Origin: Methanocaldococcus sp. FS406-22
GTDB taxonomy: Archaea > AGJL01 > Methanococci > Methanococcales > Methanocaldococcaceae
Assembly (NCBI RefSeq): GCF_000025525.1
Contig: NC_013887.1
Span: 110,729 to 134,728, forward strand
Length of the DNA: 24,000 nucleotides
Reading direction: 5' to 3'
Shown here piece by piece: positions 3,638 to 24,000 of this stretch. Positions within the stretch are counted from its first letter, which is position 1. Each line of letters starts with the position of its first letter. A program made the position numbers and the translations under genes. The notes below the pieces were generated by a model, which was not told where the DNA came from, did no database searches, and saw nothing but the letters and a program-made list of their open reading frames with translations.

Positions 3638-3679
3638 TTTTTAGAATTACAGAAAATTTAACATAATTATTTTTTTGGT

Positions 3680-4618
3680 GTGATTATGAGAGTTGGGATC
3701 ACAGCAATAGTTCCACCTGAAATTATTTACTCAACCAATCATATTCCTTTGGATTTAAACAATTTTGTTCCCCAATCTAATGTACATCCTAAAAATAAAC
3801 TGTGTGCTTGGACTGCTTCATGGAGAGAGTTGATTTTAGAGGATAAAATTAAAATTAATAAATTAATTGTTGTTGCTGGAGGAGATTGTCAAAATTCCCT
3901 TGTTGATGCTGAAAAGATAGAATTGAAGAAAAAAATTCCTACGCATTATTTCTTTTATCAATTTGGAGATAAAGAACATTTTGAAAATGAAATAAAAAAA
4001 CTTATTGATTTTTTAGGAGGGGATGTTGATAAAGATATTTTAAGAGAAGTTTATAAAATAAAAAAACTTGCAAAAAAAGTTGATGAATTGTGCTATAAAG
4101 ATAAAATAAATGGGAAGGATGCATTTTATACCACAATTTCTGCAAGTGATTTAAAAGGAAACCCAAATGCATACAAAAAAGAGATTGAAAATTTATTAAA
4201 CAATGAGGAGAATGTTGAATATAGGTATAGAATTGCTTTAATTGGCATACCACCAATTTTTAGTGATTTTTATGAATATCTGAATGAAATAAATGTGCAT
4301 TGTGTTTATAACGAATTACCTTATGAGTTTGTGAGGATGGGAGGAGACTCAATAAAGAGTATAGTAGACACCTATTCAACATACACGTTTGCCAACCATA
4401 TAACTAAAAGAATAAAGATTATAAAGAGAGAATTAAAAAAGAGAAAGGTTGATGGAATAATCCACTATACACAAATGTGTTGTCATCATAAGTTAGAAGA
4501 TGAAATCCTCAGAGAATTTATTGATTACCCTATGCTGACAATAGAGGGAGATATTCCCCAAAAAACACCCGAACAAGTGAAGTTAAGAATAGAAGCATTT
4601 ATAGAGATGTTGGGATAG
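3680..4618 (+). CDS. 2-hydroxyacyl-CoA dehydratase (HgdB/HGD-D family)-like subunit, single copy
   Basis: 312 aa (GTG 3680 or ATG 3686). Overall HGD-D-like layout with conserved Cys positions (GGDCQNS; IHYTQMCCHHKLEDE). It is followed 2 nt later by a cognate-type activase gene. The family call is from motif recollection, not a search. Confidence 0.7.
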   Translation: MIMRVGITAIVPPEIIYSTNHIPLDLNNFVPQSNVHPKNKLCAWTASWRELILEDKIKINKLIVVAGGDCQNSLVDAEKIELKKKIPTHYFFYQFGDKEHFENEIKKLIDFLGGDVDKDILREVYKIKKLAKKVDELCYKDKINGKDAFYTTISASDLKGNPNAYKKEIENLLNNEENVEYRYRIALIGIPPIFSDFYEYLNEINVHCVYNELPYEFVRMGGDSIKSIVDTYSTYTFANHITKRIKIIKRELKKRKVDGIIHYTQMCCHHKLEDEILREFIDYPMLTIEGDIPQKTPEQVKLRIEAFIEMLG

Positions 4619-4620
4619 CT

Positions 4621-5301
4621 ATGATGGGTATTGACGTTGGCTCAACACACATAAAAATTGCGGATGGGAAAAGTTTTAAAAAATATCCAATAATTAAATT
4701 AAATGAAATATTAAAAAAGTACAATAACGATGATGTTTTTGCAACAGGATATTTTAGAAAGAGGTTTAAAAATCACATAACTGAAATTACTGCTGCTATA
4801 TATGGAGTTGATAAAGAAATTGATGTTATAATTGATGTTGGTGGGCAGGATACAAAGATAATAAACACAAAAACATTAGAGTTTGTGATGAATGATAAAT
4901 GTGGAGCGGGGACTGGATTATTTTTACAAACCATAGCTATGTATTTGAATGTCCCTATCGAAGATTTTGGTAAGTATTATTCAAAAGATCCCTTAAAGTT
5001 AAATAATACTTGTGCTGTTTTTTCGATTTCTGAAATCATCAATTATCTTGTAAATGGTTATAGCATTAAAGATATCATAGCATCTGTAAATTACACTATA
5101 GCAAAGAAAATAGCCAATATGAATCCATATGAATGTGAAACTATTGCTCTAATTGGTGGAGTAGCAGAGAATAAGGCATTTGTTAAGTATTTTAAAGAAG
5201 TTACTGAGAAAGACGTTTACATTCCTAAAAATCCACAGTTTATAAATGCAATAGGGGCGAGAAAATATGGAATTGAACACTCAGCAAAAAATAATCTTTG
5301 A
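4621..5301 (+). CDS. CoA-substrate-specific enzyme activase (HgdC/BcrAD_BadFG ATPase family)
   Basis: 226 aa. ASKHA phosphate motifs GIDVGSTHIKI and DVGGQDTKII, adenosine motif IGGVAEN, and the two cluster-bridging Cys contexts of HgdC-type activases (MNDKCGAGTG and NNTCAVFSISE). Confidence 0.85.
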   Translation: MMGIDVGSTHIKIADGKSFKKYPIIKLNEILKKYNNDDVFATGYFRKRFKNHITEITAAIYGVDKEIDVIIDVGGQDTKIINTKTLEFVMNDKCGAGTGLFLQTIAMYLNVPIEDFGKYYSKDPLKLNNTCAVFSISEIINYLVNGYSIKDIIASVNYTIAKKIANMNPYECETIALIGGVAENKAFVKYFKEVTEKDVYIPKNPQFINAIGARKYGIEHSAKNNL

Positions 5302-5839
5302 AATTTATGATTTGTATAAGAGATTTGAGTTGATGATAAATAACAATAGAAGCAAAACCAAAAAACAAATAGAAAAGATTAAAAATGAAATTATAGTTAA
5401 GGATATTAATGATGTTAGTTATGTTGATAGGGTTCAGGAAATTTTGTTGAATTATAGAGAGATTTGGGGTTTTGTTCATAAATCATCAATAAAACAGTGG
5501 ATTACAACTTCTAAAACTATAAGTGTAGCTGGAATGTTTCATAAAGACAATTTAATTGGGGTTATGGTTTATGGGGAAAAACCAAGTTACCTCAAAATTA
5601 ATTATATTGCAGTTAATAAAAGATTCAAAGACAATTCCCTTGGAGGATATTTTATCTCATTTTTAGAGAAAAAAGCTAAAAAATTACAAAAGAAGAAAAT
5701 ATATGCTGAAGTTCCAGGAGATAATGAGGGAGGATTGGGATTCTTCATAAAAAATGGATTTATAATTGAGGGTATTTTGAAAAATCATACAAGAGGTGGT
5801 AAAGATTTAGTATTAATGGCTAAATATTTAGAGGGATAA
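5267..5839 (+). CDS. GNAT-family N-acetyltransferase with ~70-aa N-terminal extension
   Basis: 190 aa. GNAT motif A region INYIAVNKRFKDNSLGGYFISFLEKKAKK and C-terminal FFIKNGF. The track start overlaps the activase by 35 nt, and the alternative ATG at 5333 (MINNNRS) would remove the overlap. The stop lies 2 nt before the next ATG. Confidence 0.7.
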   Translation: MELNTQQKIIFEIYDLYKRFELMINNNRSKTKKQIEKIKNEIIVKDINDVSYVDRVQEILLNYREIWGFVHKSSIKQWITTSKTISVAGMFHKDNLIGVMVYGEKPSYLKINYIAVNKRFKDNSLGGYFISFLEKKAKKLQKKKIYAEVPGDNEGGLGFFIKNGFIIEGILKNHTRGGKDLVLMAKYLEG

Positions 5840-5841
5840 AC

Positions 5842-6768
5842 ATGGTAGAATTTTTTGCATCATTAACGATTTCTGCAGGAGAAATTAAAAAAATGGTTGA
5901 ACTTTTAAAGAAACATGAACCAAAAAAATGGGTTTTTGAAAATGTGATTTTTACACCTTTGGTTTCATCGGAAAGTACTATAAAAGAAATTAGAAATTTA
6001 AAGAGAAAGTATAAAACCACTGTTATGTTTGATAGTGGAGGTTATTATGTTCAACAAGAAAAATTTGAAATATCTCAACTATTCTCGTTTTTAAGGGAAT
6101 TTTATAGAACTAATAAATGGGGAGATTGGTATGTCTTACCAGATTCTCCACCAGTTTCCTCTGATGCTGTAGATACTGCCTGGGGTAAAGTTTATGAAAC
6201 TGTATATTTTGCGAAAAGTTTTGCTGAAGAATTTAATGGGAAGATGGAGAAAAAGTTTATCCCTGTTGTTCAGGGCGTTAATAGGGATATGATTCATTAT
6301 TGTGTTAAAAATTATGCTGATTTAAATGTTAGAAGAATTGGCTTTGGAAGTTTTGGAACTTGTGGGAAAAGGAATCAAATTAATAGACTTACAAAAGACA
6401 GTTTAGAAAATCTAAGATATTTATCCAGGTTAGCAAAAGAATATGGATTCGAGTTGCATGCCTTTGGTATTGGTGGGGGAAGTTCTGTAAATAAAATTAG
6501 GGATTATGTAGATAGCTTCGATAGTAGTAGTTGGGATAAAGCAGGGGGATTTGGGGATATATTTTTCCCAAATTCAAGAACTATTAATATAACTGGAAAA
6601 TCTCCAAGAACTTCTTCAAAAAATTATATTGGATATAAGTACCTAATTGAAAAATTTAGAAATGGGCATAAATGTTACTTTTGTGAAGATTTAAGTAAGT
6701 TAAAAGAGTATAAAATATATAGATCTTTACATAATATTATAGTATTGTATGAAATGGTGAAAGAATGA
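5842..6768 (+). CDS. Minimal tRNA-guanine-transglycosylase-fold protein (DpdA-like candidate DNA/RNA base-exchange enzyme)
   Basis: 308 aa. TGT landmarks occur in the canonical order: MFDSGGYY (6025-6048; TGT DSGGFQ), VLPDSP, IPVVQGV (TGT GIVQGG), IGFGSFG, HAFGIGG, DSFDSSSW (Asp at 6520-6522 aligns with the catalytic MFDCV Asp), and HKCYFC...19 aa...LHN (6667-6684; TGT Zn site CxCxxC...H). There are no PUA or C-terminal tRNA-recognition domains. Confidence 0.75.
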   Translation: MVEFFASLTISAGEIKKMVELLKKHEPKKWVFENVIFTPLVSSESTIKEIRNLKRKYKTTVMFDSGGYYVQQEKFEISQLFSFLREFYRTNKWGDWYVLPDSPPVSSDAVDTAWGKVYETVYFAKSFAEEFNGKMEKKFIPVVQGVNRDMIHYCVKNYADLNVRRIGFGSFGTCGKRNQINRLTKDSLENLRYLSRLAKEYGFELHAFGIGGGSSVNKIRDYVDSFDSSSWDKAGGFGDIFFPNSRTINITGKSPRTSSKNYIGYKYLIEKFRNGHKCYFCEDLSKLKEYKIYRSLHNIIVLYEMVKE

Positions 6769-7505
6769 AAGGGAGTTACCATATTCAGCATAATGCTAAA
6801 CCAGAAATTATAAGGAAACTAATTGAATATAACCCAAATGCCAAAAAATCAGAACTAAAAAAAGCATTTCCTGAGATAAAATCAAGTATAATTGATGATA
6901 ATTATACAATTATGAACAAACTCATAAACGTTAAAGATAAAAATGAAATTGAAAATATTTTAAAGATGGATGATGAAATGTTCAATAACTACCTCCATTA
7001 TAAGCTTTACTCATCTAAACTACCAATTGGATGGTCTTACAGGTGCGTAATAAACATATTGTATGAAGAATATAATGGTAAAAAAATTAACTATAATGAT
7101 ATTGAACAAAAAGTTAAAGAAAAAGCGTTTGATGAAGAGCTAGGAGGAATATCATTTAGTAGTAATAGCGTTCGTGGGGCGATTAACTTTATAAGGTCTT
7201 TATCCCCTTCACCAATTGACGATAATAACGTTTTCAATCTTAGAGATTATTGTCAGCCACATCTATTATTGTGGGGGGTGGACTATCTTTATAAAAAACA
7301 GTGGGGAGAAGACTATGGATCATTAATGCTTTTGGATGAGGAGAAAGTTGAAGAACTTTCTAAATTTTGTTTAATTAAAGATGATATATTAGATGATTAC
7401 CTAAAAGAACTTGATTTTATGTATGATTTTGTCGAAATATCTATAAAAGCGTTTGGAAGATATGTGAGATTGAAAAGAACATGGAATTTTAGTGATATTT
7501 TATAA
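6765..7505 (+). CDS. Hypothetical protein (246 aa), no family recognised
   Basis: Its ATG overlaps the upstream stop (ATGA at 6765-6768), giving good coding continuity in the operon. I cannot place any motif with confidence. LPIGWSYR is only vaguely reminiscent of the FPLRYGW motif I associate with DUF4007. Confidence 0.55.
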   Translation: MKGSYHIQHNAKPEIIRKLIEYNPNAKKSELKKAFPEIKSSIIDDNYTIMNKLINVKDKNEIENILKMDDEMFNNYLHYKLYSSKLPIGWSYRCVINILYEEYNGKKINYNDIEQKVKEKAFDEELGGISFSSNSVRGAINFIRSLSPSPIDDNNVFNLRDYCQPHLLLWGVDYLYKKQWGEDYGSLMLLDEEKVEELSKFCLIKDDILDDYLKELDFMYDFVEISIKAFGRYVRLKRTWNFSDIL

Positions 7506-7518
7506 AAGGGGGAGGGGT

Positions 7519-8028
7519 ATGGATTACATTACACTAATAAATTACATAAAGAGAAATTATTCCTCTAAATTCTTAACTGATAGTCAAAAGGAAGCATATA
7601 ACAAATTAAAAAAATTTCTTTTATTTGATAATGTTGTAAATCTTTATGGAAAAAGTGGGGTTGGAAAAACGTTTTTAGGATGGGTGTTTGCAAAAGATAA
7701 TAACTTTATTTATTTTAAAACTGAAGAAGAGTTCAAAAAATACAAAACAACAAGAAAAATGAATGTAATTATTGATAATGGTGAACTAAATGATGGAAGA
7801 AATATTAGGAGGTTAATTTCTCTAAAGGCAAATAAGGCAATTTATATTTCAAAAGGAGAAACTTTAGATTACAGTGTAAAGCTAACATTGAACTGGCGTG
7901 ATGTTGAACATGTTTTAGAGAATATCTCTCCAATTATTGAGAAAAATAAAAATATATATATTGACAACTTTTTTGATAGTGATTTAAATTTATGGAAAGT
8001 ATTTAAGGTGATGACATATGGATATTAG
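7519..8028 (+). CDS. Small P-loop NTPase (169 aa)
   Basis: Walker A GKSGVGKT (7648-7671) and a Walker-B-like hhhhD in NVIIDNG. I prefer the ATG at 7519, preceded by GGGGGAGGGG (7508-7517), over the track start 7492, which overlaps the previous gene. Confidence 0.65.
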   Translation: MDYITLINYIKRNYSSKFLTDSQKEAYNKLKKFLLFDNVVNLYGKSGVGKTFLGWVFAKDNNFIYFKTEEEFKKYKTTRKMNVIIDNGELNDGRNIRRLISLKANKAIYISKGETLDYSVKLTLNWRDVEHVLENISPIIEKNKNIYIDNFFDSDLNLWKVFKVMTYGY

Positions 8029-11000
8029 CTTATTGGAATACATAATAAATAAGAGTCCTGTTATAGACACCTATTCTGCTGAAAACTTAATAAATGAACC
8101 AAATTTAGTTGTGGATAAATATGAAAGCCACTTAAAAACATATATAAAGGTTGATGATGAGGAATTTGATAAAAGATTTATAAGGGAAATTAAAAAAGGA
8201 AAAACAGTAAAAGGCTATATTTCAGCTCCTTATGGTTATGGAAAGACAAGTAAAGCCTTGAGTTTGTGGGATTATTGTAAGAAAAATAACATCCTTGCAA
8301 TTCCTCCATTTAAATTCGATGGAAAACTTGATACAATAATGGATGCAGTTTATGGTTGGACAAGATATGTTTACAAACTTAAATATCCTGAGTATTTAGA
8401 CAAAATTGAGAAAATTTATAGAAAATATAAGGGTCTAAGTATAGAAAAAGAAATTGAATATTTAATGAAAAATAGAAATTTAACGGAAAATGAAGCTAAA
8501 GAGATAGTTTATGATCTTTTAAATAGGGGGAAATTAATTGTATCAATTACACCAAAAGATCTAATGAATTTCTTAAAGGAAATGAATGAAATCATAAAAG
8601 AACATTTTGAAGGTATGGCAATTTTCGTTGATGAAGTTCAGGGAATAAAAAATATGGAAATTATAAATAACTTAAGAAACTTTATTTTTGAGTTAAGCAT
8701 TAACAACATAGGTTTAGGTATTTTGTTTATAATTCCTGATTATCAGGAGGAAGATTTAAACATAAGAGCTGGAGATCTAATTGATAGACTACGAAAAGAT
8801 GGATTTTATTTAAATTTAGTAAATATATATAGTGTCAATTTCGCAGAGGACTTATGGAAAAAATACGGAGAACTTTTACAATTTAACCCCTATGATATCA
8901 TAACAGAAGATTGTTTAAGAAGTATTGGAGAGATATCATCAAGAGAAGATTTAGGAAAAGGTCCAAGAACAGTTATAGGAGCGTTTAAATGTGCATGTAT
9001 GAAATATAAAGAGAAATTTGAACCATATACAGTGTTTGATTTTATTAATGATATCTTAAATGGAGAGATTAAGTTTATACACCAAAAGTTTTTAGATGCT
9101 TTAAATGAAGGACTATCATTAAAGAAAGTTGATTCAGACAAAAAGAGAAAGGTTATTAAACTTGTAGGAGCATTTCCAAGAGGAATTTCCGAAGAAAAAA
9201 TAAAAGATTATGGATTATATGATGAATACGAGGAATTGTCAAGATTTTACTATGGAACAGAAATCGTTTATGCACTTGAAGGATATACTCTAAAAGGTCT
9301 TCTAAAAGGTGAAACAGCTACATATGTTGAACAGCATATAAGAAAATTTAGAAGCATATTTAATGAGTCTTGGGAAGGAGAAATGATTGACGCATTCATA
9401 ACTTATATATTACCTGAGATATTTCCAAGGAAAAAAGGAAGTCAAATCATGGGTTGGAGAATAGATGAAAAGTATCCTATAGTTGGGGGGTATTATCACC
9501 AATTAACAGGAACATTTAATCCGAAATATCCATTTAGAACTATTGGAGTTTATTCCTTACGATATGATACTAACGAAAAGGAGAATACATTGGTAGATGT
9601 TGAATTTAGGTTTATATTAGATAAAAACTGTAAGAATAATGATTTAGTTATTGATTATAGAAATGGCGAAGTAATTTTTAGATTTAATGTTTTAAAGAAA
9701 GTTGGAGAAGATAAACTTCCAGGAGATCTGAAAAAACTCCAACAATATGTTAAACCGCAAGAAGTAACCCCAATGTTTATGCTATGTCTATTAAATTATT
9801 TTGACAAGATAAAAGAAAAAGAAGATGAATATGCAAAGCATGAAAGTGAGATTAATGCACTAAAATCAATTCTAATAAGATATTTGAAGAGATTTTTGTT
9901 TTCTGATGATTTGGTAGAGAAATATAATTTAAGAAAACGACAGGAAAAAATCGTTGAAGAAGTATTTAACAGAATTTGTGAATATAAATTTAGAGATTAC
10001 AGCACACTAATACATTCCCCTAACTGGCATAAAGATTTGGAGAGATATAGAATTTTATTAAATTCATTATCAATTTCGAAAAGAAGAGGAGAAGAATTTG
10101 AAACCACTAAAAAGAAATTGGTTTCTATATTAACAGGTAGTAAAAATCCAAATGTTGCAGGATTTAAAGAAGAATGTGAATACGGTAAGTGGAAGGATTT
10201 AATTAATTTAAAACATTGGGGAAAAGATGAAAAAATTAGAGTAGAGTTGAAGAAACATCCACTTGAAGAAATGATATTAAAAGAATTTATTGAAAAGTGG
10301 ATACAGCCAATAAGTGTTGATGAAATAGTTAGTTATGGAATGAGTTTAGGATACATCCCAGAAGAAGTTGAAGAAATTTTAAAAATCCTTGAGAGTAGAA
10401 GATACATTGAAATTAACAAGGGATATGTCTTCAAATCTAGAGAAATAACAAATACTGATGTTCTAAATAAATTTGATGAAGTAGAAAATCTTGCAAAAAA
10501 AGTAGTGACTCTCTATATGAAGTATGGGAAAAACGTTCCTAACATACTTGTTAAACATTCAAAAAGAGAAGAGATCAAACAACAAACTGATCCTGATTTG
10601 TTATATAAAGAGCTAGAAATTATTGAGAGTTGGGAGAAGTCATTAAAGGAATATCTTAAAACTATAGAGAATGAAATAAAAAATGATAAAGAAGAATTGA
10701 TAAATAAAGTGCTAAAAATAGGGGAAAAAATAGATGACCTGAAAAATAAAATAGATAACATAAAAGAAGAGATTATTAAAACTCACTATTCATTGGGAGG
10801 AATCGTCAGGCATTTGGAAGAGCAAATAAAAATAACAAAAAAGAAATGCAACAAAATATCAAAAGATCTACTAATACTGAAAGAAAAAATAAATTCTACA
10901 AGAGATCTTGAACCTCTTGCTGAATGTCTAAATGAAGCAAAGAAAACATTTAAAAATCTGAATTATGAGTATGAGGATGTTCTTACAAAATACAATAAAT

Positions 11001-11818
11001 TTAAATCATGGTTAGGGATTTTAAGAAAATTGGAAGAATTATATGAAAAAATTGATGTTTATAGAGATTATATTGACATCAAAGAAGAACATGATAAATT
11101 CAATGAATTGATAGAAGATATAATCCAAGGATTTGCAAGAGAAGGGGCAGATTATTTAGATATGGATAGAGACGTAGAAGAGGACATAAAGTTAATAGAC
11201 GAGAATATAAAGAAAAAAGAAAGAAATCTAAGAAATGAATTTAATAAGATACAAGAAGAAATAAGAACGAAAATGAATATATTAGCTCAAACGTTAAAAC
11301 CATTGAACATTCAGCATTATTCATATAGGGAAGCATTCAGTATTGAAGATAGAGAGACAGCATATCAAAATCTAGTAAGAAATGTAAAATCATATATAAA
11401 AGAAGTTGTAGATAAGTTAAATGATCAAGTTAATCATCTAAAAGCAGAAGTTGAACTTAGATTAAATAATAATGAAAACTATATCTCTAAATTGAAAGCA
11501 ATAGGAGAAGAAGTAGAGAATATAGATATCGAAGTTATAGATAAAGACAACTTAATGGAATCTGTTGAAGAAATAAAATCCAAAATACTTGATATTTGGG
11601 AAAATTTAGAAAAAGTTAGAAAAGAAATAAAAAGAGAGATCATTGAAAGAAGTAAATCAGAAAAATCTGAGGAAGAAATAAAAATAATTGAAATATTAAA
11701 CAAATATGGTGAGATACCAATTGAAAAACTCTCAAAATATTTAAATATGGATATTGAGGGGACTTTAAAATGGTTATTAAAAATGGAAAATGTAGAAATA
11801 ATTGTAAGGAAGAAATAA
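8018..11818 (+). CDS. Large P-loop ATPase, BrxC/PglY (DUF499)-like, with C-terminal coiled coil and putative winged-helix modules
   Basis: 1266 aa. Walker A APYGYGKTS (8225-8251) and Walker B IFVDE (8621-8635). Size and N-terminal ATPase placement match BrxC/PglY. About 10590-11650 is extremely K/E/I/N/L-rich with a heptad-like pattern. wHTH-like stretches are PISVDEIVSYGMSLGYIPEEVEEILKILESRRYIEINKGYVF and the C-terminal IIEILNKYGEIPIEKLSKYLNMDIEGTLKWLLKMENVEII. The ATG is preceded by GGTGAT. The family call is inferred. Confidence 0.6.
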   Translation: MDISLLEYIINKSPVIDTYSAENLINEPNLVVDKYESHLKTYIKVDDEEFDKRFIREIKKGKTVKGYISAPYGYGKTSKALSLWDYCKKNNILAIPPFKFDGKLDTIMDAVYGWTRYVYKLKYPEYLDKIEKIYRKYKGLSIEKEIEYLMKNRNLTENEAKEIVYDLLNRGKLIVSITPKDLMNFLKEMNEIIKEHFEGMAIFVDEVQGIKNMEIINNLRNFIFELSINNIGLGILFIIPDYQEEDLNIRAGDLIDRLRKDGFYLNLVNIYSVNFAEDLWKKYGELLQFNPYDIITEDCLRSIGEISSREDLGKGPRTVIGAFKCACMKYKEKFEPYTVFDFINDILNGEIKFIHQKFLDALNEGLSLKKVDSDKKRKVIKLVGAFPRGISEEKIKDYGLYDEYEELSRFYYGTEIVYALEGYTLKGLLKGETATYVEQHIRKFRSIFNESWEGEMIDAFITYILPEIFPRKKGSQIMGWRIDEKYPIVGGYYHQLTGTFNPKYPFRTIGVYSLRYDTNEKENTLVDVEFRFILDKNCKNNDLVIDYRNGEVIFRFNVLKKVGEDKLPGDLKKLQQYVKPQEVTPMFMLCLLNYFDKIKEKEDEYAKHESEINALKSILIRYLKRFLFSDDLVEKYNLRKRQEKIVEEVFNRICEYKFRDYSTLIHSPNWHKDLERYRILLNSLSISKRRGEEFETTKKKLVSILTGSKNPNVAGFKEECEYGKWKDLINLKHWGKDEKIRVELKKHPLEEMILKEFIEKWIQPISVDEIVSYGMSLGYIPEEVEEILKILESRRYIEINKGYVFKSREITNTDVLNKFDEVENLAKKVVTLYMKYGKNVPNILVKHSKREEIKQQTDPDLLYKELEIIESWEKSLKEYLKTIENEIKNDKEELINKVLKIGEKIDDLKNKIDNIKEEIIKTHYSLGGIVRHLEEQIKITKKKCNKISKDLLILKEKINSTRDLEPLAECLNEAKKTFKNLNYEYEDVLTKYNKFKSWLGILRKLEELYEKIDVYRDYIDIKEEHDKFNELIEDIIQGFAREGADYLDMDRDVEEDIKLIDENIKKKERNLRNEFNKIQEEIRTKMNILAQTLKPLNIQHYSYREAFSIEDRETAYQNLVRNVKSYIKEVVDKLNDQVNHLKAEVELRLNNNENYISKLKAIGEEVENIDIEVIDKDNLMESVEEIKSKILDIWENLEKVRKEIKREIIERSKSEKSEEEIKIIEILNKYGEIPIEKLSKYLNMDIEGTLKWLLKMENVEIIVRKK

Positions 11819-12720
11819 AGAAAATAAAAACTCCTTGTTACTTGAAAATAAAACATAAACTTTCTCTTCTATTTTTTGATTTTGAAGAAATATCTTATGA
11901 TGATTTTTGGAGTATGATTGATGATCCAAATATTGAAATTGAATATAAGAAGTACGTAATATTGGACAAATTTGATGATCGACTACCAATTTATGAAATA
12001 GATCATAATCCTTTTACAGGGGAATTAAATAAAATCTTGAAAGAAAAATATCATCTAATTGAAAATTATATCAAGACACAAAAAGATGTTAAAGAGATTA
12101 TAATCTCTAAAGTAAACAAAAGAACTCCAAAAACAGTTGTTTTATATTTAATAGATGGGTTATCTTATGTTGATTATGTCGAAGCACAAATTCCTTATGA
12201 AGGAGAACCAATATTCGTTAATGGAGAAACATCAACTAAAAATGGTTTAATGAATATCATTTATGGAAAAAATAACATTCCAATTGCAAAAGAGCTCCAA
12301 AAATTTGGATATAGGTGCTTTGGACAGACATATTGGAATAGGAAAAATGAACTAACAGATATTTTGTTTAGATATTTTAATGAAAAATACATTTTTCACA
12401 GTGATGAAGAAATCTACAATGTAATAAATAAATACAGATCATCAAAAAAATATATCCAGATATATAGGGGAGGGTTGGATGAGTATGCACATAAATTGAG
12501 AGACATTAGTAAAAAATCCATAATTAACAAAATAAAAGAGATATTTGAAGATATAAATAAGCTAAATGATATTTTAAATAACATAAAAGAACCATATTTA
12601 GTCGTAATTACTTCAGATCATGGTATAAAGTGGAATTTTGAAGATCCTCATAAAAAAGGCAACCATAAAGAACTTACATTTGAAACGTGTTTTGTGCCTT
12701 TAATTATAATTGAGGGATAG
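11770..12720 (+). CDS. PglZ-type alkaline-phosphatase-superfamily protein
   Basis: Metal and nucleophile landmarks occur in PglZ order: VVLYLIDGLSY (Asp 12154-12156), ETSTKNGLMNIIYG, GGLDEYAH, VVITSDHG (12610-12624). The track start 11770 overlaps the previous ORF by 49 nt. An in-frame TTG at 11842 (MKIKHKL...) is the more likely start. Confidence 0.7.
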   Translation: MVIKNGKCRNNCKEEIKKIKTPCYLKIKHKLSLLFFDFEEISYDDFWSMIDDPNIEIEYKKYVILDKFDDRLPIYEIDHNPFTGELNKILKEKYHLIENYIKTQKDVKEIIISKVNKRTPKTVVLYLIDGLSYVDYVEAQIPYEGEPIFVNGETSTKNGLMNIIYGKNNIPIAKELQKFGYRCFGQTYWNRKNELTDILFRYFNEKYIFHSDEEIYNVINKYRSSKKYIQIYRGGLDEYAHKLRDISKKSIINKIKEIFEDINKLNDILNNIKEPYLVVITSDHGIKWNFEDPHKKGNHKELTFETCFVPLIIIEG

Positions 12721-12721
12721 T

Positions 12722-13882
12722 ATGCTATTCATAGGAAGAGAAAAGCTAAAAGACAGATTAGGCAATGATATTTATATAGATGCCTCAAAATCCCATGCAA
12801 TTTTTATTTGTGGTAAAAGAGGTAGTGGGAAGAGTTACACATTGGGAGTTTTAGTCGAAGAACTTCAAGAAAAGTATCCAGATTATTTAAAAATTATTAT
12901 CGATCCAATGGGGATATTTTGGACTATGGTAGAACCAAATGAAGAACAAGAAGAAGAACTTTGGGATTGGAATTTGTATGCTGAAGGATATCCAGTTAAA
13001 CTAATAGTTCCCGGAGAAATAGAGGAAAGGTTTGATGAAGATGTTATAAGAGAGTTAGAAAATAGGGGAATAGAGTTTAAAAAACTTCTTTTAAATCCTT
13101 CTGATATCTCAGCAGAGGGGTGGTGTGATTTATTCAATTTAAATATAAACGAAATGATGGGAATAGCCTTGTATAGAGCAATTGATAATATTGAGAAAGA
13201 TTTTTTCACAATAGACGATATTATTTATGAGGTTGAAAGAGATACAAAATCAAAGGAATCTACAAAAGAAGCATTAATAAATCGTCTAAACATGGCAAAA
13301 AAATGGGGAATTTTTTCAGATGAATACATCCCAATAGAAGATATTTTTGAAAGAAATGCAATAAATGTAATTGATTTAAGTGTTATTGAAAGCGGAAGAT
13401 ATGGACTGAGAGATTTAATAGTATCGATAATTGCAAAATATTTATTTAATCAACGATTGAAAGCAAGAAAAAAAGAAATGCTAAATTTACAATCAAAAAT
13501 GCCAAAAGTTTGGTTATTTATTGATGAAGCCCATAATTTCATCCCTTCTGGGAAATCAACATTATCAAAAGAGATTCTAATAAGATGGGCAAAGGAGGGA
13601 AGACAACCAGGATTGAACTTAGTTATAGCTACTCAACAACCATCAGCAATAGATAATGAAGTTTTAAGCCAATGCGACATCATCTTTGCACATAAAGTAA
13701 CAAATAGAGAGGATATAAATGCATTAAATAAGCTCAATCAAGAGTATATGGGAAAAGAGTTAAAAGTATATATTAAAGATCTAAATAAAGGAGAGTGTGT
13801 TTTTATTGATGATGAAAAAGAATTCTTAAAAATTATAAAAATAAGGCCAAGAAAAAGTAAACATGGAGGAGGAGAGAAGTAA
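12722..13882 (+). CDS. HerA/FtsK-superfamily ATPase (DUF87-like core)
   Basis: Walker A GKRGSGKSYT (12812-12841), Walker B VWLFIDEAHNF (13508-13540), then GLNLVIATQQPSAIDNEVLSQCD, typical of HerA/VirB4-like ATPases. The ATG at 12722 is preceded by GAGGGA and lies 1 nt after the upstream stop. The track start is a TTG at 12710. Confidence 0.8.
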   Translation: MLFIGREKLKDRLGNDIYIDASKSHAIFICGKRGSGKSYTLGVLVEELQEKYPDYLKIIIDPMGIFWTMVEPNEEQEEELWDWNLYAEGYPVKLIVPGEIEERFDEDVIRELENRGIEFKKLLLNPSDISAEGWCDLFNLNINEMMGIALYRAIDNIEKDFFTIDDIIYEVERDTKSKESTKEALINRLNMAKKWGIFSDEYIPIEDIFERNAINVIDLSVIESGRYGLRDLIVSIIAKYLFNQRLKARKKEMLNLQSKMPKVWLFIDEAHNFIPSGKSTLSKEILIRWAKEGRQPGLNLVIATQQPSAIDNEVLSQCDIIFAHKVTNREDINALNKLNQEYMGKELKVYIKDLNKGECVFIDDEKEFLKIIKIRPRKSKHGGGEK

Positions 13883-13938
13883 AATATATCGGAATTTCTA
13901 TGAAAAATGCTATTATGTATTATATATGGTGATTAATA

Positions 13939-15033
13939 ATGAAATTCTTCAATAGAGAGAAAGAAATCAAAGAAATTTTATCAATCTTAGAGGGAGAGCC
14001 AAATTTAATTTATTTTATCTACGGCTCTATAAATTCTGGTAAAACTACATTAATAAAACATATCATAGAAAATAGACTAAATGATAATTACAAAGTTTTC
14101 TACATTAATTTCAGAACCTACTTAATATCAGAAAAGAGGGAGTTTATTGAAGCTATTTTCACCACTAAAAAAGATGATTTCTTTGAAAAAATAAAGGATA
14201 AATCAGAGGTTTTAAATTTGATAACCAAAGGAGCTAAGATTCTAACTGGTATTCCAATTCCTGAGATTGAATTTGATAAGTTATTTGAAGAGAAGATAAA
14301 CGATGTTTTTCAGTATTTAAACAGTTTATTGTTAGCGGTTAAAAAGAGTGGGAAAAAGCCAATCCTAATATTAGATGAATTACAAATGATTAAAGATGTT
14401 GTGTTAAATGGGCAGAAATATTTATTAAAAGAGCTATTTCAATTTTTAGTATCTTTAACAAAGGAACAACATCTATGCCATGTTTTTTGTCTAAGTTCTG
14501 ATAGCTTGTTTATTGAGTATGTTTATAACGCTGGAGAGTTAGAAGGAAGAGCTGATTATATTTTAGTGGATGATTTTGATAAACAAACTGCTTTAAAGTT
14601 TATTGATTTCTTAGCAAGGGAGAATAATATGGAACTTTCTGATGAGGATAAGGAATTAATCTACTCTTATGTTGGTGGAAAGCCAATTTTAATAATAAAG
14701 GTATTTGATAAGCTAAAAACAGAAAGAAAATTAAAAGATATTTTAGATACTATACTTAAAGAAGAAGCACAAAAATTAAGATACTTTTTAAAAGATCTGG
14801 ACTATATAAAACCAAAAGTTAATATTGAAGATGAAGTTATTGAAATTAAAAAAGAAGACATAATTGAGGCGTTAAGATTGTTTAAAGATAACTATGAAAT
14901 TAGCGATGATAAAATTCCAAAACCAGTTTATATTTATTTAATTAAAAGAAACATTTTATTCTTAGACCCTATTGAAGGGACTCTAAAACCGCAATCATTT
15001 TTAATCTGGAATGCGATAAAAAGGATTTTATAA
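13939..15033 (+). CDS. Archaeal ATPase family protein (Arch_ATPase/PF01637-like)
   Basis: 364 aa. [12 protein letters not shown]... N-terminus, Walker [10 protein letters not shown] (14023-14049) and Walker B ILILDELQ. It resembles the multi-copy M. jannaschii archaeal ATPase paralog family, and by position is probably the MJ0147 counterpart (from memory). GGTGAT precedes the ATG. Confidence 0.85.
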
Positions 15034-15118
15034 TCTTAGAATAACTGAGAGGCATTGCCGAGCAAAGCGAGGCAATGCATCGGGAGTATAACAATAGAGG
15101 GTTTCCCTCTATGCCTGC
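15034..15118. repeat. GC-rich double-hairpin insert E1 (candidate structured sRNA or miniature mobile element)
   Basis: Hairpin A: GCATTGCC(15052-15059)-GAGCAAAGCGA-GGCAATGC(15071-15078). Hairpin B: TAGAGGG-TTT-CCCTCTA (15095-15111). It shares the core CCGAGCRAAGCGAGG plus GTATAA with the insert at 22651-22716. It is flanked by two versions of the ATPase gene tail. Confidence 0.5.
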
Positions 15119-15143
15119 GAATGCTATAAAAAGAGTGCTATAA
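15119..15143 (+). pseudogene. Orphan duplicate of the last 7 codons + stop of the upstream archaeal-ATPase gene
   Basis: 15120-15143 AAT GCT ATA AAA AGA GTG CTA TAA (NAIKRVL*) versus 15010-15033 AAT GCG ATA AAA AGG ATT TTA TAA (NAIKRIL*). 20/25 nt are identical; three differences are synonymous and the other two produce I->V. Confidence 0.6.
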
Positions 15144-15173
15144 TATATCAAAAACGGTTATGGAGGGATAACA

Positions 15174-15374
15174 ATGAAGATAGAAATAAATGAAAACTTC
15201 TGTAAGGGATGTGATATATGTATTGTAGTATGTCCAAGAGGAGTGTTTGAGAAATCAAAAAAGTTGAATAAAAAAGGTGTCTATCCTCCAATCCCAGTGA
15301 ATGCTGAAAAATGCACAAAATGCAACCTCTGTATATTACAATGTCCAGACCAAGCTATATCTATAGAGGAGTAA
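15174..15374 (+). CDS. 2x[4Fe-4S] ferredoxin
   Basis: 66 aa with two CxxCxxCxxxCP motifs (CKGCDICIVVCP, CTKCNLCILQCP). GGAGGG SD at 15162-15167. Confidence 0.9.
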   Translation: MKIEINENFCKGCDICIVVCPRGVFEKSKKLNKKGVYPPIPVNAEKCTKCNLCILQCPDQAISIEE

Positions 15375-15452
15375 TTAAATTTTTTAATACCCACTACACA
15401 AACTTTTTAATGGATAATAATAAATAAAACCATACTGAAGTTAATTATTTAC

Positions 15453-15470
15453 TATACTACTTATACTACT
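15453..15470. repeat. Perfect tandem 9-mer TATACTACT x2 upstream of gch3
   Basis: 15453-15461 and 15462-15470 are identical, 30-47 nt upstream of the ATG at 15500. Possible promoter or operator element, function unknown. Confidence 0.3.
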
Positions 15471-15499
15471 TTTACATAAATTTTGGAAGAGATGGGAAA

Positions 15500-16306
15500 A
15501 TGATTCAAATAACAGTAATTCAAATAGACAATTACGGACCTTGGACAGTTACACCAAATCCAAGGAGAGAGAGTGATTTACAAGCTCTGCAGAGCAGATT
15601 ATATGCTGATTTAAATCTCATGTTTGGGGCTCATAAGGGATTGGTGTTTTATACAAGATTTGATAATTTAATAGCAATAACAAATGGTATTGATTTAATT
15701 ACACACAAAAGAATTCAGGAGAGTATAAGGAATAGGTATCCATTTACAGTTAGTATGGTTATTGCCTCTGCTGAAACACCTTATGAAGCTCAAAAATTAG
15801 CTACTGAAACACTTCAAGAGTATGGAAGTGCCCAGGATGAGAATAGGAAAGAGGTTTTAGATGTTGCCAATGAGTTAGTTGTTGATGGATACGTTCAGAT
15901 TGCCCACATTGATATAAACAACATTACAGGAACTCTTACAGATATAGTGAGTGCCTATGACACCTATCTAAATGTAAATAAAGTTAAATTAGCATTGATG
16001 GAAGAGCTTTTAAAACATAATGCTTTGTTGTTTTTTATAGGTGGAGATAACTTCATGTCTCCATCAAATGGAATGAATGAGGAAGATTTCTTGGATATTT
16101 TCAACAGAATCAATAAAAAGTATAAGATAGAGCTAAAAGCAGGAATTGGGATAGGAAGAACTGCTGAAGATGCCTCAAACTTAGCAGATATTGGATTAGA
16201 AAAAATTAGAGGAAAGTTGGTTGATAAGAATGTATGCACTTTAAAGCAGGATGACTTTTTAGAGCAAAATATAACAACTGGAAGATTATGTGGATTACAA
16301 AGGTGA
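15500..16306 (+). CDS. gch3: GTP cyclohydrolase III (riboflavin/F420 branch)
   Basis: 268 aa. [38 protein letters not shown]... matches my recollection of M. jannaschii MJ0145, the characterised GTP cyclohydrolase III. Confidence 0.92.
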
Positions 16307-22289: not shown

Positions 22290-22565
22290 TTATTTTATTC
22301 TTATTCCAAAAGCAAATAAAAACATCCAAACAATCATCAATATTGCTATTAATACAGAAAGAATCATCAAACCTGGGGAATTTCCAAAGACTATAGGAAT
22401 TGGCCCAATCATTATAATCCCAGAATATTCAACATTATTCTCCTCAGTTTCTTGTTTTTTATAATTTTCTTGAGAACTTGGCAGAATCATTCCTAAAGTT
22501 ATCATAAAAAATCCAATAAACATCAAAATAATGCCTAAAAATATTAATATTGGCTTCATAACCAT
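22290..22565 (-). CDS. Small integral membrane protein (DUF131/TIGR00304-like)
   Basis: 91 aa with three hydrophobic segments. The IMIGPIPIVFGNSP motif is what I associate with the archaeal DUF131 family. Confidence 0.65.
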   Translation of the reverse strand: MVMKPILIFLGIILMFIGFFMITLGMILPSSQENYKKQETEENNVEYSGIIMIGPIPIVFGNSPGLMILSVLIAILMIVWMFLFAFGIRIK

Positions 22566-22584: not shown

Positions 22585-22650
22585 TTATTTTCCTAAAGGA
22601 TAGTTAGGGGGTTCATTGGTAATAATGATGTCATGTGGATGGCTTTCAAC
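22585..22650 (-). pseudogene. Orphan second copy of the last 21 codons + stop of guaB
   Basis: The reverse complement reads GTT GAA AGC CAT CCA CAT GAC ATC ATT ATT ACC AAT GAA CCC CCT AAC TAT CCT TTA GGA AAA TAA ([21 protein letters not shown]). The functional tail 22717-22782 encodes [21 protein letters not shown]. 53/66 nt are identical, and 12 of the 13 differences are synonymous. Confidence 0.8.
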
Positions 22651-22716
22651 GAAAGGGCTTCTCCCCTTTTCAAACCCCAAGGATATCTCCGAGCGAAGCG
22701 AGGAGGTATAAAGAAG
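22651..22716. repeat. GC-rich double-hairpin insert E2 (related to 15034-15118)
   Basis: Hairpin 1: AAAGGG(22652-22657)-CTTCTC-CCCTTT(22664-22669). Hairpin 2: CTCC(22687-22690)-GAGCGAAGCGA-GGAG(22702-22705). It lies between the two guaB tails and is much more GC-rich than the surrounding spacer DNA. Confidence 0.5.

Positions 22717-24000
<1,284 letters not shown>

Follow-up and report, generated by a model that had tools for sequence, protein, structure and literature searches.

The window analysed here is a 24,000-nt stretch of the genome of Methanocaldococcus sp. FS406-22. Its plus strand carries a gene for an ATPase of the MJ1010-like family (positions 13939 to 15033), the ortholog of MJ0147, with Pfam matches to PF01637 and PF21690 and a product that is 100% identical to protein P0001 of the same strain. 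According to the sequence reading and the comparison loci, the gene ends in a working tail, ...W-NAIKRIL-stop (15009 to 15034, plus strand), which is followed by a spacer of 86 nt (85 counting a shared G) and then by a second version of the same tail (15119 to 15144, plus strand). As the initial annotation had described, these are near-copies of the last seven codons plus the stop codon: T1 (15010-15033) reads AATGCGATAAAAAGGATTTTATAA and T2 (15120-15143) reads AATGCTATAAAAAGAGTGCTATAA, with identity at 19 of 24 positions, or at 20 of 25 when the preceding G is counted. Three codons differ synonymously (GCG/GCT, AGG/AGA and TTA/CTA), and the remaining one, ATT/GTG, changes isoleucine to valine. 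The second copy is untranslated, lies in a different frame from the ATPase gene (offset 110 nt) and abuts the upstream region of a gene for a 2x[4Fe-4S] ferredoxin (15174 to 15374, plus strand) with a ribosome-binding site, GGAGG, at 15163-15167. The ferredoxin ATG (15174) does follow soon after the second TAA, 30 nt on.

The spacer was also correctly described as carrying two hairpins and as being GC-rich: its GC content is 48.8%, against 29.9% for the window, and places it within the top 0.5% of 86-nt windows. The stems of hairpin 1 lie at 15052-15059 and 15071-15078, with inner GC/GC pairs and tandem G.A, and those of hairpin 2 at 15094-15101 and 15105-15112. When the insert was folded, z was -2.9 as RNA and -4.2 as DNA, and none of 200 shuffles was equally stable in the latter case. 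On the basis of folding, of other loci, of their alignment and of covarying stems, we distinguish a module A (15046 to 15084, plus strand), which consists of the 5' flank GAGAG, hairpin 1 with the loop AAA, and the 3' flank ATCG. Folding and stem variants define a module B (15085 to 15118, plus strand), with the composition GGAGTATAA-CAATAG-AGGG-TTT-CCCT-CTATG and hairpin 2 at 15094-15112; 5-6 nt (CCTGCG) separate it from the second tail. The 86-nt insert contains neither an ORF nor an integrase remnant, and BLAST against the window returned only the insert itself and a 15-nt core match that points to a second instance, behind guaB. Several known kinds of element were sought and rejected. There are no sites in 14800-15500 where a hairpin is directly followed by a T-run, as in an intrinsic terminator; no C or D boxes of a C/D-box sRNA are visible on either strand; and Rfam 15 (including SscA, Hgc RNAs and C/D-box sRNAs) has no match in the window at the gathering threshold. 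A permissive Rfam scan of 14900-15250 gave at best snoR69Y (21.6 of the 45 bits required) and SscA (17.2 of 60), and the element copies in seven other loci had no Rfam matches. No matches pointing to a virus or plasmid origin were found.

The orthologous ATPase-ferredoxin junctions, whose alignment had been suggested as a check, reveal the nature of the second copy. The functional end of the ATPase gene of M. bathoardescens is identical to T2 at 25 of 25 positions; M. jannaschii has a relic that agrees with T2 at 24 of 25, within a 50-nt relic that sits behind a different hairpin insert; and T2 recurs unchanged in locus L004. The second copy is thus the tail of the resident gene, as had been proposed, and this relic keeps the native upstream context of the ferredoxin gene. 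The junctions of M. bathoardescens and of loci L029 and L030 lack the hairpin element; in M. bathoardescens a MITE lies between the ATPase tail and the ferredoxin gene. The relic contains TATAAAAA and, by eye, a putative TATA-like sequence, GCTATAAAAAG; a plausible start would follow it some 22 nt further on, 19 nt before the ATG. A role of the relic as ferredoxin promoter, a candidate that was likewise recognised by eye, is not general, since M. bathoardescens and L019 differ. The sole ATG of the 86-nt insert (15111) opens a 10-codon frame that runs into the relic, and an ATG in frame with the relic was not reproduced at other loci. Read-through into an in-frame relic was also discarded: no more than 3-4 of 10 loci have an offset between the copies that is divisible by 3, as expected by chance.

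The two ends of the ATPase protein have different closest relatives. Over the N-terminal 200 aa, identity to the M. bathoardescens ortholog is 95.5%, whereas over the C-terminal 164 aa it is 67%, and there another paralog lineage reaches 84%; the best matches of the C-terminal part belong to the P0062-65 lineage, and the paralog lineage likewise ends in KRIL. At the DNA level, identity to the orthologs of M. bathoardescens and M. jannaschii falls from about 0.85 to about 0.68-0.72 from gene position ~600 onwards. This drop, together with the C-terminal best matches and with L029/L030, delimits a 3' block of different ancestry at 14540 (an approximate left limit) to 15048 on the plus strand, which takes in the final ~490 nt of the ATPase gene, the working tail with its stop codon, and a 12-15-nt trailer of its own. 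Judged by these matches, the ATPase is a mosaic that owes its 3' half and its working tail to a different lineage of paralogs, in agreement with the earlier view of the working tail as a foreign allele.

The element is flanked on its left and right by DNA of different ancestry: identity to M. bathoardescens is 96-100% downstream of the relic and about 86% in the upstream flank. The close relatives L029 and L030, which agree with the window at 98% to either side, share its working tail and the 12-15 nt trailer but have neither hairpins nor relic. The 3' block that they share reaches the trailer TC(G/T)TAGAATAAC, and there the working tail and trailer are joined to a MITE remnant instead, so that the left and right blocks are separable units. 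It should be noted that L029 and L030 are independent assemblies and L027 and L033 single contigs, and that some of the loci compared are metagenome contigs, which may be chimeric at repeats. In L005-L007, the donor-type loci that come closest, which belong to a glycogen gene cluster, the junction measures 27 nt and no hairpin lies downstream, and therefore this lineage is not the donor of the insert. No donor with the working tail and the hairpin but without the relic was found. The initial annotation had the hairpin pasted in together with the foreign tail; this part is not supported: L029/L030 carry the same tail without hairpins, and L005-L007 have none downstream.

The 70-nt core of the insert (A plus B) belongs to a family of GC-rich repeats with two hairpins and no ORF, dispersed in Methanocaldococcus genomes, that was defined in this analysis. 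The pattern of module A is AAGAG, an 8-bp stem GCATTGCC, then GAGCGNAGCGA, GGCAATGC and ATCC, and it is found in the window at 15046-15084 with the loop AAA and the flank GAGAG. That of module B is GG(G)TATnC-CAATAG, a variable complementary stem, a loop and CTATG(G), found at 15085-15113; the identical variant occurs in L008 and L011. The exact module A core was located at seven loci of a genome collection from which the FS406-22 genome is absent (three times in Methanocaldococcus sp. 28A, the others in MAGs) and at eight metagenome loci. The alignments show conserved flanks, AAGAG...ATCC and CAATAG...CTATGG. Between them the stems change in a compensatory manner (GCATTGCC/GGCAATGC against GCACTACC/GGTAGTGC against GCATTTGCCTCT/AGAGGTAAATGC), and at least eight different, perfectly complementary inner stems of module B occur among the copies. 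Folds of five A+B copies gave z = -3.5 to -6.9. A-type copies at gene ends are oriented as the upstream gene and most lie between co-directional genes; the relic of L019 lies within an apparently convergent gene pair. Two copies have no flanking duplication, one inside CobN (L018) and one in a promoter region (L011, 5780-6050). The CobN copy, as well as the NGH-stop tail of MJ0147, resembles in-coding repeats that leave the frame intact.

The arrangement of working tail, hairpin repeat and old tail is found behind at least 10 unrelated housekeeping genes, with a second copy of 24-66 nt, and the one-off event implied at first has to give way to a dispersed repeat with a family-wide layout. A second tail copy after the element is present in the window at 15119-15144 and at ten other loci. 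The genes concerned are those for the ATPase and guaB in the window, MJ0147 (L002), an FAA hydrolase (L009/L012), POR gamma (L010/L013), a GCD14-type methyltransferase (L011), an M50 peptidase (L015), TrpB (L017/L022), a carbamoyltransferase (L019), LysRS and one unknown gene (L010). The duplicated lengths are 24, 26, 29, 39, 40-50, 50, 52, 56, 57, 61 and 66 nt, and the intervening hairpin DNA measures 66-350 nt and contains no ORF. Nearly all the gene-end copies observed carry a relic, leaving aside L016 and L021, where the contigs end.

The second instance in the window lies on the minus strand behind guaB (IMP dehydrogenase). Its working tail (22717 to 22782), recognised from repeat D2 and by comparison, is followed by an insert of 66 nt (22651 to 22716; GC content 50%) that forms two short hairpins, the first of which has the CCGAGCGAAGCGAGG core as in module A, flipped, and by a 66-nt tail relic (22585 to 22650) that is identical to the working copy at 53 of 66 positions. 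As DNA this insert folds no more stably than shuffles. Of the 13 codon differences between the two copies, 12 are synonymous. Downstream of the relic comes a DUF131 gene (22290-22565, minus strand). The same layout is present in L023, and the site is empty in L024/L025. A four-way comparison at guaB is star-like; in porG and guaB the grouping follows the genome at some sites and the type of copy at others, which points to later exchange.

To evaluate the tail match at the ATPase gene, 191 ORF tails were compared with their own downstream 465 nt, with the reversed sequence as null. The T1/T2 pair scored 27, the 99th percentile of a null whose maximum is 30, and the other tail-duplication loci scored 33-99. 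The significance of seven codons alone is only borderline, so the early worry that they might be too few was justified; the ATPase match is certain because of the relatives' junctions and not because of its own statistics.

The two tail copies differ as two functional alleles would, and the relics of different lineages differ likewise among themselves. Pooled over nine loci, T1 and T2 show 64 nucleotide differences, distributed 14/2/48 over the codon positions, with 45 synonymous against 13 nonsynonymous codon differences, a pattern that none of 5000 random-substitution runs reaches. The codon-structured divergence claimed at first from the ATPase tails is thus highly significant once the loci are pooled. 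Between lineages, relic against relic, the distribution is 4/4/17 (p = 4e-4), and in M. jannaschii there is a switch of serine codons, TCA/AGT. At L009 the copies are nearly identical, with one internal mismatch in 51. Relics seem to evolve about as slowly as coding DNA. Gene conversion from T1 to T2 alone was rejected, since it predicts about 46% of the differences at third positions and 75% were observed.

We put the chances at about even that the ATPase locus represents a recombination joint formed out of register, with a mobile hairpin repeat sitting in it. Under such a model the hairpins would act as stopping points for copying or strand exchange between homologous DNA molecules; the partner could be another genome copy within the same polyploid archaeon, a different strain or a paralog. 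Having passed the gene end and the element, a strand would resume on a homologous partner some 24-66 nt upstream of the equivalent point, through copy-choice or else through one-sided homologous recombination closed by a microhomology joint; we infer this overlap-creating step. The left partner would supply an intact gene with its stop codon, and the right partner the downstream gene with its native upstream sequence. Only overlapping joints would persist, because they alone should be harmless in very tight gene junctions. If the partner were an identical genome copy, the tails would start out identical, as at L009; with a diverged allele they would show mostly synonymous differences from birth. 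The joint model also faces difficulties. The near-identity at L009 fits a target-site duplication just as well, and near-universal relics would be expected if duplication were intrinsic to insertion, so that the model requires relic-less gene-end copies to be rare or selected against. Furthermore, given the slow evolution of the relics, one past joint is insufficient and continuing exchange would be needed. We tentatively extend the proposal to the genus, with less confidence: Methanocaldococcus may possess ORF-less hairpin elements that are joints splicing homologous DNA out of register, where gene ends are systematically duplicated, the left copy working and the right one a relic continually refreshed from functional alleles.

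The best-surviving alternative, which we regard as possible if somewhat unlikely, has two steps. Transposition would duplicate tens of bp of target and would survive where a gene end was spanned; later recombination with element-free alleles or paralogs would overwrite each copy independently, and since its tracts could not cross the heterologous insert, codon-structured differences and an ancestry break would result. The initial annotation had dismissed target-site duplication because of the codon-wise divergence; that divergence stands, but a duplication followed by recombinational re-sampling on each side is still viable. Near-identical copies at L009/L020, a relic at virtually every gene-end copy, reproducible element ends (AAGAG...CTATGG), the shift of ancestry across the element and the porG/guaB sites that group partly by genome and partly by copy type all fit this course of events. 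It accounts poorly for a duplicated length that varies between 24 and 66 nt, and for the CobN and promoter-region copies, which have no flanking repeat. At the ATPase locus, moreover, the working tail is separated from the element by a foreign trailer of 12-15 nt that is collinear with the L029 haplotype; because of this trailer the duplicated target does not adjoin the element. The loci compared showed neither a transposase nor an autonomous partner, and a classical TIR MITE at the tail of the neighbouring ferredoxin gene, which in relatives lies at a distance of 220 nt, has a duplication of the ordinary kind, 7-8 bp long.

Quite improbable, in our estimation, is a functional RNA or DNA structure at operon junctions (3'-end protection or processing, an insulator or a small RNA), with the relic kept as promoter or translation start context. 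Stems maintained through compensatory changes would agree with it, as would the orientation of A-type gene-end copies along the upstream gene, mostly between co-directional genes, and the putative TATA-like GCTATAAAAAG of the relic. Yet no Rfam family reaches its curated threshold (SscA has 17 bits against a required 60), there is no T-run terminator, and the junction manages without the element in M. bathoardescens, L029/L030 and L024/L025. Since in M. bathoardescens the MITE parts the ATPase tail from the ferredoxin gene, this tail is not an indispensable promoter; the L019 relic, besides, lies in an apparently convergent gene pair, and the synonymous-type divergence of the relics would go unexplained. 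A function of this kind would be compatible with the other explanations.

Integration by archaeal integrases typically produces direct repeats of 40-60 bp, by which the 3' end of a gene is restored. Repeats of this type, and a strain-specific 10.3-kb island directly upstream of the ATPase gene, could suggest that the direct repeats are attachment-site scars of a larger integrative element, such as the island itself, which would have entered the 3' end of the gene bringing a tail copy of its own and then been lost except for 86 nt. We hold this for very improbable. L004 has the identical tail-hairpin-relic layout without the island and no repeats were found at the island borders, on which grounds the island scar was rejected; the small insert family stands behind many genes, each with its own gene's tail, and the 86-nt insert shows no integrase remnant and no viral or plasmid matches. 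That T1 and T2 resemble each other by chance in an AT-rich genome has a negligible probability: the pair reaches only the 99th percentile of the null, but the true gene end of M. bathoardescens is collinear with the second copy and identical to it, the match extends to the 50-nt relic in M. jannaschii and ten more loci have the same layout with far higher scores. The orthologous junctions already refute this reading.

The closest parallel is found in fungal mitochondria, where gene hybrids are created by mobile endonuclease ORFs (Allomyces macrogynus atp6; Glomus atp6, atp9, cox2 and nad3; PMC3630166). As at the ATPase locus, an inserted foreign C-terminal end works and the native end remains downstream as a relic; the relic matches a close relative, and the inserted copy differs mostly synonymously. 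In the fungal hybrids, however, the two copies are separated by an endonuclease gene of the LAGLIDADG or GIY-YIG type, which drives the process at one particular gene, whereas the Methanocaldococcus repeats have none, in keeping with the absence of a homing-endonuclease ORF from the 86-nt insert, and stand behind many genes. The duplicated stretch is 24-66 nt in Methanocaldococcus against 50-280 nt in the fungal hybrids. To our knowledge, the endonuclease ORFs of fungal mitochondria are so far the only mobile elements for which such a gene-end exchange has been described.

Hairpin repeats are also known from organelles, namely the double-hairpin elements of Allomyces mtDNA (Paquin et al. 2000, as summarised in PMC3787672), the repetitive hairpin-forming elements of sponges (PMC2800124) and the GC clusters of yeast mitochondria (PMC4478555). 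Like the element described here, they are short, ORF-less and GC-rich, have one or two hairpins, are scattered in AT-rich compact genomes in intergenic and sometimes coding positions, and are associated with rearrangement and recombination breakpoints; they differ in belonging to another domain of life and in having no sequence relation to it. We know of no description of a systematic duplication of the adjacent gene's tail for these organelle repeats. Within the same genus, M. jannaschii has about 141 palindromic, mostly extragenic repeats, MJRE1-3, some of which are inserted in coding regions whose frame is not destroyed (Suyama, Lathe & Bork 2005, cited in PMC2229807). The comparison with MJRE1-3 is at the level of the abstract, which makes no mention of tail duplications with coding-type divergence; in the collection scan, the exact module A core was not found in the M. 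jannaschii genome. Bacterial REP/BIME elements and classical MITEs are likewise dispersed non-coding hairpin repeats after stop codons in operons, and the present family is modular and mosaic like BIMEs. The GTAG or CGTC tag at the hairpin foot of REP/BIME is not present in the element alignments. A classical MITE does not fit either: terminal inverted repeats are lacking, as the ends AAGAG... and ...CTATGG are not complementary; there are two independent hairpins; and the flanking repeats are variable in length (24-66 nt), with none at L018 or around the second copy in L011. Homology-facilitated illegitimate recombination and copy-choice (template-switch) joints, known from bacteria and from experimental transformation, are similar in that one side is anchored by homology and the other joins out of register at a few matching bases, which yields duplications or deletions. 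As far as we know, such joints have not been described as a recurrent natural architecture of one repeat family, nor have they been shown in archaea.

In practical terms, the relics are easily misannotated as frameshifted or duplicated gene ends, and the repeats are a likely source of chimeric contigs in metagenome assemblies. If the proposal is true, the elements would divide the chromosome into blocks, each with an ancestry independent of the others, and 3' ends or whole downstream blocks could be swapped between strains or paralogs with the tightly packed operons unharmed. The breakpoints would have a searchable signature, namely a stop codon, GC-rich hairpins and a synonymously diverged copy of the last 8-22 codons. 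This would provide a handle on the spread of small hairpin repeats without an obvious transposase, on the shuffling of C-terminal domains in MJ1010-type ATPases, and on the extent and the sites of DNA exchange in polyploid hyperthermophilic vent methanogens.

The ATPase gene (13939-15033, + strand; 100% identical to the FS406-22 protein P0001) ends at 15010-15033 (+) with the working tail AAT GCG ATA AAA AGG ATT TTA TAA. A second, untranslated copy, the relic AAT GCT ATA AAA AGA GTG CTA TAA (15120-15143, +), lies beyond an 86-nt insert, with its TAA 30 nt before the ferredoxin ATG (15174). The two copies are identical at 19/24 nt; of the four codon differences, three are synonymous and one is I>V. 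The insert has 48.8% GC against 29.9% for the window (top 0.5% of 86-nt windows), and folding reproduces both of its perfect hairpins (z = -2.9 for RNA, z = -4.2 for DNA). The tail copies, the hairpins and the GC-rich insert described in the initial annotation are all present in the sequence. Taken alone, the tail repeat is statistically weak: when 191 ORF tails were each scanned against their own downstream DNA, its score of 27 reached the 99th percentile of a reversed-sequence null whose maximum was 30. An ATG at 15111, at the end of the second hairpin, opens a 10-codon frame in register with the relic (MPANAIKRVL*, 15111-15143); this is probably a coincidence, since its counterpart at other loci is out of frame or soon stopped.

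The orthologous junctions, whose alignment had been proposed as a search for empty and filled sites, provided both. The intact ATPase gene of M. bathoardescens (L001) ends exactly as the relic does (25/25), and with respect to the tail split its junction is an empty site; in a metagenome relative 95-97% identical to the window (L004) the site is filled, with the same layout, an identical relic and one base different in the insert. In M. jannaschii (L002), the MJ0147 protein ends in ...NAIKKLLNGH*, and its gene is followed by GC-rich hairpin modules of other types (~230 nt) and then by a ~50-nt relic, AAACCACAGAGTTTTTTAATCTGGAATGCTATAAAAAGAGTGTTATAA, which directly adjoins the ferredoxin gene. 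The orthologous junctions show that the second copy is the old ATPase gene end, as expected from its earlier reading as the resident tail. Ancestry switches across the hairpin element: the window shares 96-100% identity with M. bathoardescens downstream of the relic, and the flank upstream of a strain-specific 10.3-kb island (3636-13918) is ~86% identical and slightly nearer M. jannaschii.

By gene order, the ATPase is the positional ortholog of MJ0147: the window, M. jannaschii and M. bathoardescens share cdhC, an AsnC-type regulator, a V4R protein, a small ORF, cbf5, the ATPase, the ferredoxin, GTP cyclohydrolase III, a Dus-like gene and hemA. The protein matches PF01637 and an MJ1010-like C-terminal domain in Pfam, in a family with many paralogs, nearly all of which end in ...WNAIK(R/K)(I/L/V)(L/V/I). 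Its first 200 aa (window 13939-14540) share 95.5% identity with the M. bathoardescens ortholog and 98.5%, above any ortholog, with P0012, a paralog in the same genome; over the last 164 aa, identity to P0012 is only 59%, a contrast that suggests recent conversion among paralogs. These last 164 aa share only 67% identity with the M. bathoardescens ortholog and 84% with the paralog lineage P0062-65, whose C-terminal end is KRIL as in the window, and DNA identity to both orthologs falls from gene position ~600 on. The gene is a mosaic of two ancestries, and the proposal that the working tail came from a foreign allele is borne out by this similarity. The 10.3-kb island, placed between cbf5 and the ATPase, is missing in M. 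bathoardescens, M. jannaschii and L004, and no repeat was seen at its borders. Its ORFs encode HGD-D-like, BcrAD/BadFG-type ATPase and GNAT proteins, a weak TGT-like protein, a 1266-aa protein without Pfam match and a HerA/DUF87-like ATPase.

Alignments show the same arrangement behind unrelated genes, where the last 24-66 nt of a gene are repeated beyond an element that follows its stop codon. In addition to MJ0147 (L002), such tail duplications were found at FAA hydrolase (L009/L020, L012), pyruvate:ferredoxin oxidoreductase gamma (L010, L013), a GCD14-type methyltransferase (L011), an M50 peptidase (L015), TrpB before TrpA (L017/L022), a carbamoyltransferase (L019), and class-I lysyl-tRNA synthetase and one unknown gene (L010); several of the loci compared are metagenome contigs, possibly chimeric at repeats. 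The homology of the two MAGs L009 and L012 stops exactly at the end of the FAA-hydrolase relic; in L009, synteny is regained only after ~1.4 kb of additional DNA. A second case in the window (22585-22782, minus) is guaB, which ends at 22717 and is followed by a 66-nt insert with hairpins and 50% GC (22651-22716, minus), a 66-nt relic (22585-22650, minus; 53/66 identical to the working copy) and a DUF131 gene. The layout is also present in the metagenome relative L023, and in Methanocaldococcus genomes that are more distant (L024/L025) the site is empty, with a plain junction of 14 nt. The first hairpin of the guaB insert differs between the window (22651-22716) and L023 (1582-1648): its interior is reverse-complemented (TCGCTTCGCTC versus GAGTGAAGCGA) and its stem is kept, which indicates a flip-flop inversion within the hairpin.

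Comparison of each working copy with its relic at nine independent loci (402 coding nt) gives 64 differing positions, distributed 14/2/48 over codon positions 1/2/3, with 45 synonymous and 13 nonsynonymous codon differences. Random substitution would give 21 third-position and 9 synonymous changes, and the observed values were reached in 0/5000 runs. At guaB 12/13 codon differences are synonymous, and the M. jannaschii copies show a TCA/AGT serine switch. If one copy of a target-site duplication decayed neutrally, roughly 46% of the differences would lie at third positions, which does not fit the 75% observed. With the nine loci pooled, the key argument of the initial annotation, that divergence is codon-structured and not that of a decaying duplication, holds across the family, and these alignments show a coding-type pattern. 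Relics of two lineages that share an insertion also differ mainly at third positions (4/4/17, p = 4e-4); the relics themselves have an apparent coding-like constraint. In the ATPase relic, GCTATAAAAAG is a candidate TATA box for the ferredoxin gene.

The insert proved to belong, by its sequence, to a dispersed repeat family. A scan with GCATTGCCGAGCNNNGCGAGGCAATGC gave 7 places in species-representative genomes other than FS406-22 itself (3 in Methanocaldococcus sp. 28A, the others in MAGs) and 8 in metagenomes; none was found in viral contigs, and the insert had no match among plasmids. Module A consists of AAGAG, a hairpin and ATCC, and module B of GGGTAT(A/C)C-CAATAG, a variable stem, loop, stem and CTATGG. 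Module A stems occur as GCATTGCC/GGCAATGC, GCACTACC/GGTAGTGC, GCATTACC/GGTAATGC and GCATTTGCCTCT/AGAGGTAAATGC, and at least 8 different inner stems of module B are each perfectly complementary; compensatory change has maintained the stems of both. Module A also combines with further modules (e.g. GTTTTGATGAAAC...CTAAAAGTTTC), and modules are nested within one another's loops. In L018, an A+B element (3180-3250, minus strand) is translated in frame within a CobN/Mg-chelatase gene, adding ~25 aa (...RRGIAERSEAMHPGYTNRGFPPME...) with no flanking duplication; a promoter-region copy in L011 also lacks a flanking repeat. L011 carries a ~190-nt composite of five hairpins with covarying stems (A, inverted B, a CACCTCTGCC...GGCAGAGGTG hairpin, B, B), twice and in opposite orientations (3050-3230, +; 5780-5985, -), the second copy adjoining a GC-rich RNA-like stretch (about 5520-5650) without Rfam hit. 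In L010 (~4060-4400, minus strand), the loop of hairpin B holds a nested GC-rich insert of ~290 nt that has no Rfam match and separates the working tail of POR-gamma from its relic.

Readings of the insert as a classical MITE, REP/BIME, terminator, Rfam RNA or integrase-att site each lack a defining feature; there is no terminator-like T-run at the insert, and neither it nor the element copies at 7 other loci matched a curated Rfam family. A genuine TIR MITE provides a contrast: 95 nt long (AACTTTCGCAG...CTGCGAAAGTT) with a 7-8-bp duplication (TCAATAG), it lies in the ferredoxin tail of M. bathoardescens (L001 ~4400-4500) and M. jannaschii (L002 ~4595-4690), where it supplies the last ferredoxin codons (69 aa versus 66 aa), and the window (~15360-15372, ferredoxin 3' end) and L004 have the empty site. 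The closest element types are the GC-rich double-hairpin elements of mitochondria and, going by their description, the MJRE. MJRE are reportedly palindromic repeats of M. jannaschii, a description attributed to Suyama et al. 2005. GC-rich double-hairpin elements are known from AT-rich mitochondrial genomes (cited in PMC3787672, PMC2800124). For the duplication, the nearest analogue is the mitochondrial gene hybrids made by mobile endonuclease ORFs, in which the working C-terminal end is an inserted foreign one and the native end stays downstream as a relic identical to a close relative, with mostly synonymous differences (PMC3630166); here the copies have no ORF between them, and the arrangement occurs at many genes.

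Directly after its ATPase stop, M. bathoardescens has its own ~80-nt TIR element (L001 4096-4175; ATAGGACTTTCACAG...CTGTGAGTCCTAT), of which the right part alone is left in the contigs L029/L030 (L029 240-300) and L033 (~440-513). Contigs with the identical ferredoxin protein present three junction haplotypes amid otherwise ~98%-identical DNA. Seven contigs are of the window type; L029/L030, two independent assemblies, have the same working tail plus a 12-15 nt trailer joined to the MITE remnant, without hairpins or relic; in L033 a different gene adjoins the MITE. Since its remnant borders different left-hand contexts, this MITE also acts as a breakpoint. From the three haplotypes, it follows that a block of foreign 3' half, working tail and trailer is separable from a block of resident tail and ferredoxin. 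Another contig, L027 (1-1188 / 1141-1700), matches the window at 99.6% identity from 14814 on, but upstream a histidine-kinase-like gene on the opposite strand takes the place of the remaining ATPase sequence; this reflects either a genuine rearrangement or a chimeric assembly.

We give about even chances to the locus being an out-of-register joint of two homologous DNA molecules with a hairpin repeat at the joint, where the left molecule would supply the intact gene end and the right one would begin 25 nt before the equivalent stop codon. The main rival, a long target duplication on insertion with each side then overwritten independently by recombination tracts that stop at the insert, would explain the near-identical tail copies in L009 and the relic present with nearly all gene-end element copies; we hold it to be possible, though less likely. 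An RNA-level role of the hairpins is compatible with either model and needed by neither. For the out-of-register joint, we favor an overlap made by copy-choice or one-sided homologous recombination ending at the hairpins, because the duplicated length varies (24-66 nt), the CobN (L018) and promoter-region (L011) copies have no flanking repeat, a foreign trailer parts the working tail from the element in the window, and left and right blocks are found separately in relatives. The two blocks are joined in differing ways, always at a repeat element.
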